A stretch of DNA of 64,000 nt, taken from Escherichia coli (GTDB lineage: Bacteria > Pseudomonadota > Gammaproteobacteria > Enterobacterales > Enterobacteriaceae). A program made the translations under genes and the position numbers. The notes beneath the pieces are model-generated. The model had not been told where the DNA came from and ran no database searches. It saw nothing but the letters and a program-made list of their open reading frames with translations. Shown one piece after another: positions 62,847 to 62,884 of this stretch (position 1 is its first letter; each line of letters starts with the position of its first letter). The stretch is from the NCBI RefSeq assembly GCF_003334305.1, contig NZ_QOWS01000014.1. One strand, 5' to 3'.

Positions 62847-62884
62847 GTCGGATGTAGCGTGAATGCCTTATTTCCGACGCAGCG
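62847..62884. repeat. Degenerate REP-like palindrome overlapping the pheP stop codon
   Basis: GTCGGATGTAGCGTGAATGCCTTATTTCCGAC resembles the REP sequence GCCGGATGCGGCGTGAACGCCTTATCCGGC at most positions. Confidence 0.6.

Follow-up and report, generated by a model that had tools for sequence, protein, structure and literature searches.

A truncated REP element at the end of pheP in most Escherichia coli genomes, probably joined to the gene by an old deletion

Repetitive extragenic palindromic (REP) sequences have been described near gene ends and overlapping them, and in many genomes their termini give stop codons to the flanking open reading frames (Di Nocera et al. 2013, PMC3733652). A REP that lies no more than 15 nt from a stop codon depresses translation, an effect that involves stalled ribosomes and tmRNA (Liang, Rudd and Deutscher 2015, summarised in PMC12306157), and binding and cleavage by TnpA_REP require the GTAG together with a stem mismatch (Ton-Hoang et al., PMC3333891). 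The supply of stop codons by REPs is already documented, and the case of pheP reported here is an ordinary one that differs in detail. A literature search that paired pheP with “repetitive extragenic palindromic” returned no paper, and the supplements of PMC12306157 hold no entry for pheP or ybdG. The annotation of K-12 (NC_000913.3, 603300-633300) lists no repeat_region feature over 30 kb, although the homologous region of the window has canonical REPs; this absence is uninformative.

We analysed a 64,000-nt stretch of E. coli DNA, hereafter the window, at the end of which the genes nfsB (+), ybdG/mscM (+) and pheP (-) follow one another. A BLAST comparison with 5,426 complete E. coli genomes, together with the pheP annotation in 5,400 E. 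coli genomes, identified the locus as pheP-ybdG. The ATG start of ybdG was inferred from the annotated gene length of 1,248 nt. The 67-nt region between the two genes consists of a terminator and a REP-like sequence, to which a preliminary description had drawn attention. This sequence, the 32-mer GTCGGATGTAGCGTGAATGCCTTATTTCCGAC, was located at 62847-62878; the end at 62884 given in that description adds six bases of pheP. Its palindromic arms are 6 bp long, GTCGGA at 62847-62852 and TCCGAC at 62873-62878, with a separation of 20 nt, and the PheP of the window ends ...FKTLRRK*. The coordinates of the features are collected in Table 1.

Table 1. Features of the pheP-ybdG region, in window coordinates
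Feature	Coordinates	Strand	Remarks
ybdG/mscM, convergent to pheP	61553..62800	+	Stop codon TAA at 62798-62800
Bidirectional intrinsic terminator	62803..62846		11-bp stem CCGCTCTCATC/GATGAGAGCGG (62810-62836), 7 GC pairs
Spacer between terminator and REP remnant, 10 nt	62837..62846		The 62836/62837 boundary is the site of the 13-nt deletion
REP-derived remnant (distal arm, loop and inner stem of a y-type REP)	62847..62871	-	Assigned by REP core match and orthology
pheP stop codon TAA (TTA on +)	62868..62870	-	REP-internal TAA from ...GGATAAGG...
Deletion junction	62871..62872		62870/62871 or 62871/62872; 31 nt (single-REP) or 82 nt (two-REP) missing
Native codons Arg456-Arg457-Lys458 (CGT CGG AAA)	62872..62879	-	Same codons in E. 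whittamii, with a separate REP
pheP CDS, 3' part (phenylalanine transporter)	62868..64000	-	Runs past the window end; from ORF list and BLAST annotation

We compared this gene end with the intergenic regions of other E. coli strains and with 80 pheP loci across Enterobacteriaceae, a set that does not include E. fergusonii. An intact REP occupies the same position in other E. coli strains, in E. albertii and in E. whittamii, and it aligns with the sequence of the window base for base. Taken as orthology, this alignment is the strongest support for a REP identity. The sequence of the window departs from the intact form by three transitions (C9>T, G10>A and C18>T on the + strand) and is truncated on its pheP-proximal side, such that 62847-62870 is certainly REP-derived and 62871 falls within the 1-nt ambiguity of the breakpoint. 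The distal boundary of the y REP and its flank (CATCCGAC AAAAYGATGTC) are constant in all Escherichia alleles but two, namely those of E. coli O158:H23 (CATCCGCC) and SCPM-8794 (AAGAAGATGTC). The REP is therefore orthologous throughout the Escherichia alleles, which differ mainly on the side of pheP.

The arrangement on that side can be followed from allele to allele. The single-REP allele of E. whittamii reads CGT CGG AAA GCG AAA TAA, followed by a 12-nt spacer and an intact, GTAG-headed REP (GTAGGTCGGATAAGGCGTTCACGCCGCATCCGAC); similar alleles are found in one genome of E. coli O158:H23 and in SCPM-O-B-8794, a GTDB species representative labelled E. coli. In the two-REP (BIME) allele of Nissle 1917, the tail RRKVN* precedes an inverted z-type REP, a 16-nt linker and the y REP (GTCGGATGCGGCGTGAACGCCTTATCCGACCTAC), an architecture shared by E. 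albertii. In the fused allele of the window, K-12 and most E. coli, the gene ends CGT CGG AAA TAA GGC..., with Lys458 abutting the REP-internal TAAGG. The same TAA triplet is non-coding REP sequence in the intact alleles, where it lies 20-90 nt downstream of the native stop. Outside Escherichia, the y-type REP is absent from this position in Citrobacter and Salmonella, whose PheP ends in RRK plus two residues (SR, AR or AS) with the terminator directly after it. Overall, a y REP lies downstream of pheP at 5 of the 80 loci, four of them Escherichia and the fifth an E. coli-identical contig filed under Marinobacter.

The origin of the fused allele was examined at base resolution. The least-decayed truncated allele, that of SCU-108, equals the E. 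whittamii allele minus 31 nt (AGCGAAATAATAGTGTAGTAACGTAGGTCGG), with no other mismatch over the compared stretch and with a junction microhomology of 1 nt. Removing 82 nt from the BIME allele of strain Z1323CEC0015, which also carries CGT CGG AAA, produces the same junction. The two forms thus yield identical junctions, and from the alleles compared the precursor could be either the single-REP or the BIME form. On the pheP side, the deleted segment holds codons 459-460 with the native TAA and the spacer; on the REP side it holds the GTAG head and proximal arm, and the second REP too if the precursor was a BIME. The two extra codons of the intact Escherichia alleles (GCG AAA, GCG AGA or GTG AAT) are homologous to those at the same place in Citrobacter and Salmonella (GCC CGC, TCC CGC, GCC TCT or GTG CGC). 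The longer PheP tail is therefore ancestral, and the RRK* end is derived. The reverse polarity, a 31-nt insertion that rebuilt a perfect REP head and arm, outgroup-like codons and a stop, is implausible.

Two specific routes to the deletion were considered and set aside. Excision by TnpA_REP is unsupported: the enzyme cuts C^T, and its nearest sites predict GCC+TTTCC, whereas the observed sequence is GCCTTATTTCC. Slipped-strand deletion between the GTCGGA repeats, which lie 33 nt apart, predicts CGTCGGATAAGG, a sequence with no in-frame stop, and the actual loss is 31 nt. The GTCGGA direct repeat may lie near the junction without defining it.

Very probably, then, an old deletion joined the 3' end of pheP to a y-type REP, of which the window retains a dead, truncated part. 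According to this reconstruction, a REP would have settled between the convergent pheP and ybdG, just 3' of the pheP stop, once Escherichia had separated from Citrobacter and Salmonella, and certain lineages would have gained another REP in inverted orientation, making the pair a BIME. PheP would at that stage have ended ...RRK plus two residues (AK, AR or VN). One illegitimate deletion with 1 nt of microhomology, of 31 nt on a single-REP allele or 82 nt on a BIME allele, would then have removed everything from codon 459 through the native TAA and the spacer (with the second REP on a BIME allele) to the GTAG head and proximal arm of the REP. Lys458 would thereby have been joined directly to the REP-internal TAA, in frame by happenstance, leaving a PheP of 458 aa instead of 460 aa. 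A weak hairpin around the stop would survive because the native codons (cGT CGG Aaa) carry the same GTCGGA hexamer as the lost arm. Since the GTAG head is gone, the remnant should be immobile, invisible to the transposase and no longer a substrate for TnpA_REP. The loss of the two PheP tail residues, with the RRK cluster retained, was probably neutral, since across Enterobacteriaceae the tail that follows the last hydrophobic stretch is variable in both length and sequence. Transcription termination and protection of the 3' end would be provided by the strong terminator 10 nt downstream of the remnant.

The fused allele predominates in E. coli. It was found in 4,548 of 5,426 complete genomes (about 84%), K-12 included, with a PheP of 458 aa, and 4,018 of these 4,548 genomes are at least 99% identical to the decayed form of the window over the aligned part. 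The BIME allele with its RRKVN tail, and hence a PheP of 460 aa, accounts for 849 of the 5,426 genomes (about 16%), and the AK-type allele for a single one. The annotated coding sequences agree with these lengths, at 1377 nt in K-12 vs 1383 nt in Nissle. The same truncated and decayed remnant is present in Escherichia sp. MOD1-EC7003, the representative of a different GTDB species; because this lineage carries it, the fused allele may be either old or exchanged between lineages.

The window bears a further change at the locus. Between its remnant and its terminator hairpin, 13 nt (TTTCGGATGGTTG) are missing that are kept in K-12, Nissle and all other Escherichia alleles examined except that of Z1323CEC0015, and this loss is a second, younger deletion. 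It takes away an A-U extension of the terminator stem that is present in K-12. Identity to the window over 301 nt reaches 99% or more in about 3,078 genomes. All four combinations of truncation and 13-nt deletion exist, represented by the window, K-12, Z1323CEC0015 and Nissle. If each deletion arose a single time, at least one recombination within about 25 nt is therefore required; otherwise one of the deletions must have recurred. The combination found in Z1323CEC0015 (NZ_CP148423.1, 3015811-3015960), an intact BIME and RRKVN tail together with the 13-nt deletion and window-like CGT CGG codons, is unique among the complete E. coli genomes, and it may mark a recombination patch of very short length or else a precursor haplotype that has survived.

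Could the remnant nevertheless act on pheP? We consider it unlikely that the stop-enclosing stem-loop has been kept by selection as a cis-regulator of pheP and that the deletion spread through this effect, whether by ribosome pausing near termination (in the manner of REPs less than 16 nt from a stop, via tmRNA) or as a second barrier to 3' exonucleases. Several observations are compatible with such a role. A hairpin is indeed predicted on the pheP mRNA for the remnant of the window and K-12 (GGCATTCACGCTAC), with a folding energy of -9.4 kcal/mol, and it folds better than shuffled sequences (z = -3.85), although one of its arms is native pheP sequence and its inner stem is down to three pairs. 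Its outer 6-bp stem is intact in every truncated allele seen, the allele is carried by about 84% of complete E. coli genomes, and REPs near stop codons do down-regulate translation (Liang et al. 2015, summarised in PMC12306157).

Other points speak against it. One outer arm is fixed by the Arg codons, which makes its conservation uninformative, and the frequency of an allele in a biased genome collection is no evidence of selection. The predicted stability falls from -14.1 kcal/mol in the SCU-108-type remnant (GGCGTTCACGCCGC) through -12.3 kcal/mol in the WW2-type remnant to -9.4 kcal/mol in the window, about half that of an intact REP (-17.4 kcal/mol for the intact REP of Nissle and -19.5 kcal/mol for the canonical REP). 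The three transitions break or weaken pairs of the inner stem and are uncompensated, as would be expected under relaxed constraint. The pheP stop lies within the hairpin, which begins 8 nt before it, an overlap on which the criterion of PMC12306157 (0-15 nt downstream of the stop) is silent. Because its 5' arm lies 3-8 nt upstream of the UAA, a terminating ribosome would already have opened the stem and would meet no downstream roadblock, and the mechanism of REP-mediated repression would therefore not transfer simply.

A far stronger hairpin also lies 10 nt further on. The 62810-62836 sequence has the GC-rich stem-loop and adjoining U tracts of an intrinsic terminator, with U7 for pheP (62803-62809) and U4 for ybdG (62843-62846), and it dominates the predicted fold on both strands. 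With its 11 bp and U7, this terminator would be the obvious determinant of the 3' end of the pheP mRNA. Regulation by the stop-enclosing hairpin is disfavoured by this terminator, and also by the decay of a stem whose transitions are uncompensated. It thus appears distinctly improbable that the hairpin formed by the native arm and the distal REP arm tunes PheP synthesis or pheP mRNA decay and spread the deletion in this way; for example, ribosomes might pause a few codons before termination, some of them being diverted to tmRNA. If true, the gene would have recruited a broken repeat as a built-in 3' regulator. A remnant that presently has no function fits our preferred reading of a dead REP fused to pheP by deletion.

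The preliminary description had read the locus differently, with the REP overprinting the gene and supplying both its C-terminal codons and its stop. The part that concerns the stop holds: the stop codon lies within 62847-62878, the element thus overlaps the 3' end of pheP, and the TAA is the REP-internal triplet. The codons, on the other hand, do not come from the repeat. RRK is native, being present in Citrobacter and Salmonella, which have no REP at pheP, and E. whittamii has the same CGT CGG AAA with a complete, separate REP. Within pheP, REP sequence is thus confined to the stop codon, with the final base of the Lys458 codon as a possible addition. Because the RRK codons are native, the right arm of the palindrome (TCCGAC on the + strand, the GTCGGA hexamer of these codons) is coding sequence that coincides with the lost REP arm and acts as its stand-in. 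A check had also been proposed of whether the C-terminus differs in genomes without the REP. It does differ, in being two residues longer (RRKSR, RRKAR and RRKAS), yet RRK itself is present there anyway.

It is accordingly very improbable that a REP was inserted into the end of pheP, or expanded over it, so that arms, last codons and stop are all REP sequence. The 32-mer does resemble a complete if degenerate palindrome enclosing the stop, and REP termini do provide stop codons in many genomes (PMC3733652). Against this stand the E. whittamii allele, in which the shared codons precede two further codons, a native stop and then the whole REP; the conservation of RRK in genera without a REP at pheP; the missing GTAG head, which would be expected of a whole inserted REP; and the equality of the allele to an intact allele minus exactly 31 or 82 nt. 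The overlap is best seen as the product of a deletion that removed both gene and REP sequence, rather than as a repeat overprinting a gene.

The resemblance of the sequence to REPs was also assessed independently of the other alleles. The bare palindrome, taken alone, is not significant, since its arms are only 6 bp long and inverted repeats of this size, with loops of 3-30 nt, number 699 in the window. The resemblance to the E. coli REP consensus (GCCGGATGCGGCGTGAACGCCTTATCCGGCCTAC, as quoted in PMC12306157), in contrast, goes significantly beyond chance: 62847-62871 shares 21 of the first 25 nt of the consensus, which ranks it third in the window behind the two perfect copies at 34926 and 56859, and none of 1000 shuffles contained any match with four or fewer mismatches. 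An Rfam scan of 61000-64000 returned the REP-derived naRNA4 model below threshold (18 bits, E = 4.9). A fortuitous likeness, in which a common short palindrome beside a gene end happens to resemble a REP, might be argued from the abundance of six-bp inverted repeats and the low naRNA4 score. It can practically be dismissed in view of the core match and of the intact REPs that occupy the orthologous position in several strains and species.

What the element should be called follows from comparison with the defining features of y-type REPs. It carries the family consensus, as judged against the core of the two perfect window copies, and the family is repeated, with these two copies elsewhere in the 64-kb window and a median of 9-10 places matched per E. 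coli genome by REP-containing queries, even with megablast. The GTAG (CTAC) head is retained in the Nissle, E. albertii and E. whittamii alleles and is absent from the window allele, where it falls within the deleted segment. Nor is the location extragenic: 3 to 4 nt (62868-62870 and possibly 62871) lie inside the pheP open reading frame, and the apparent palindrome reaches 8 nt further into the coding sequence. Since both the head and the extragenic location are lacking, the element is best called a REP remnant. It is not a BIME, as the window has a single partial REP and the second is found only in the alternative allele.

The two perfect copies have neighbours of their own. At 56859-56950, a perfect y REP and an inverted z-type REP, separated by a 34-nt linker, form a BIME-like element between an ORF that ends at 56819 (fepA by K-12 synteny) and the next gene. 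At 34926-35040, two ORFs on the minus strand, which K-12 synteny identifies as ybdD and cstA, flank a perfect y REP and the boxC-like GGGGAGAGGGTTAGGGTGAGG element that comes after it.

Several further observations concern the end of pheP and its surroundings. The length and sequence of the PheP tail vary across Enterobacteriaceae (RRKSR, SRKK, SRR, RRKG, RRSA, RRPA and others). Enterobacter and its relatives carry genus-specific repeats within the first 60-120 nt after the pheP stop; the Enterobacter element is boxC-like (CTCCCTCTCCC...GGGAGAGGG...GGGGTGAGGG), and several genera have GCCCGG...CCGGGCCTAC-type REPs 3' of the gene. Judging from these loci, the 3' flank of pheP looks like a recurrent landing zone for repeats. 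In E. coli HCP4S3_I4 (NZ_CM149872.1), an IS200C transposase gene and lambdoid phage genes, among them ren and the gene for replication protein P, take the place of pheP directly downstream of ybdG, a rearrangement or prophage junction at the same intergenic spot. The BIME alleles of E. albertii and Nissle 1917 differ at 2 positions in the first ~115 nt and at about 7 in the last ~40 nt, a contrast that may reflect recombination with a boundary immediately beyond the y REP, or a segment exchange between E. albertii and B2-type E. coli. Finally, the contig filed under “Marinobacter sp. B9-2” (PYVH01000101.1) is 7.8 kb long and 100% identical to E. coli pheP-ybdG, the window-type fused-REP allele included, and is almost certainly E. 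coli contamination of a Marinobacter assembly.

The fusion of pheP to a REP remnant bears on how this gene end should be read. The end of the reference K-12 PheP (458 aa) is set by a deletion into a REP, while the 460-aa form occurs in about 16% of E. coli and in E. albertii. The locus offers a base-exact example of gene-adjacent repeats reshaping a gene end through deletion fusion rather than insertion, and the variants of the remnant show the erosion of a REP following truncation and loss of its GTAG head. For annotation, it cautions that an apparent palindrome may be half repeat and half coding sequence. The remnant leaves the knowledge of REP biology and of phenylalanine transport unchanged.

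Compared with the systems described to date, the element shares with y-type REPs the core (21/25), the orientation and the flank of the intact y REP at this locus in other Escherichia, as well as a typical REP setting, between convergent genes and beside a terminator. It differs from them in being a remnant without the GTAG/CTAC head and the proximal arm, partly intragenic and with one “arm” that is pheP coding sequence; its inner stem is degraded, and its predicted stability is about half that of an intact element. The alternative allele at this position in Nissle 1917 and E. albertii is a BIME, made of a z-type iREP, a 16-nt linker and a y REP, whereas the window allele keeps part of one REP only. 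As in translation-repressing REPs, a REP-type hairpin lies immediately at the stop codon; the pheP hairpin, however, does not follow the stop but surrounds it, and its predicted stability is low (-9.4 kcal/mol). A further parallel is with the REPs of Di Nocera et al., since here too the repeat contributes the stop codon of the upstream gene. In those cases, an intact REP abuts the open reading frame, and the TAG of its GTAG head usually serves as the stop (PMC3733652). In pheP, by contrast, the head is deleted and the stop is an internal TAA, placed in frame by the loss of a segment that included two native codons and the native stop.
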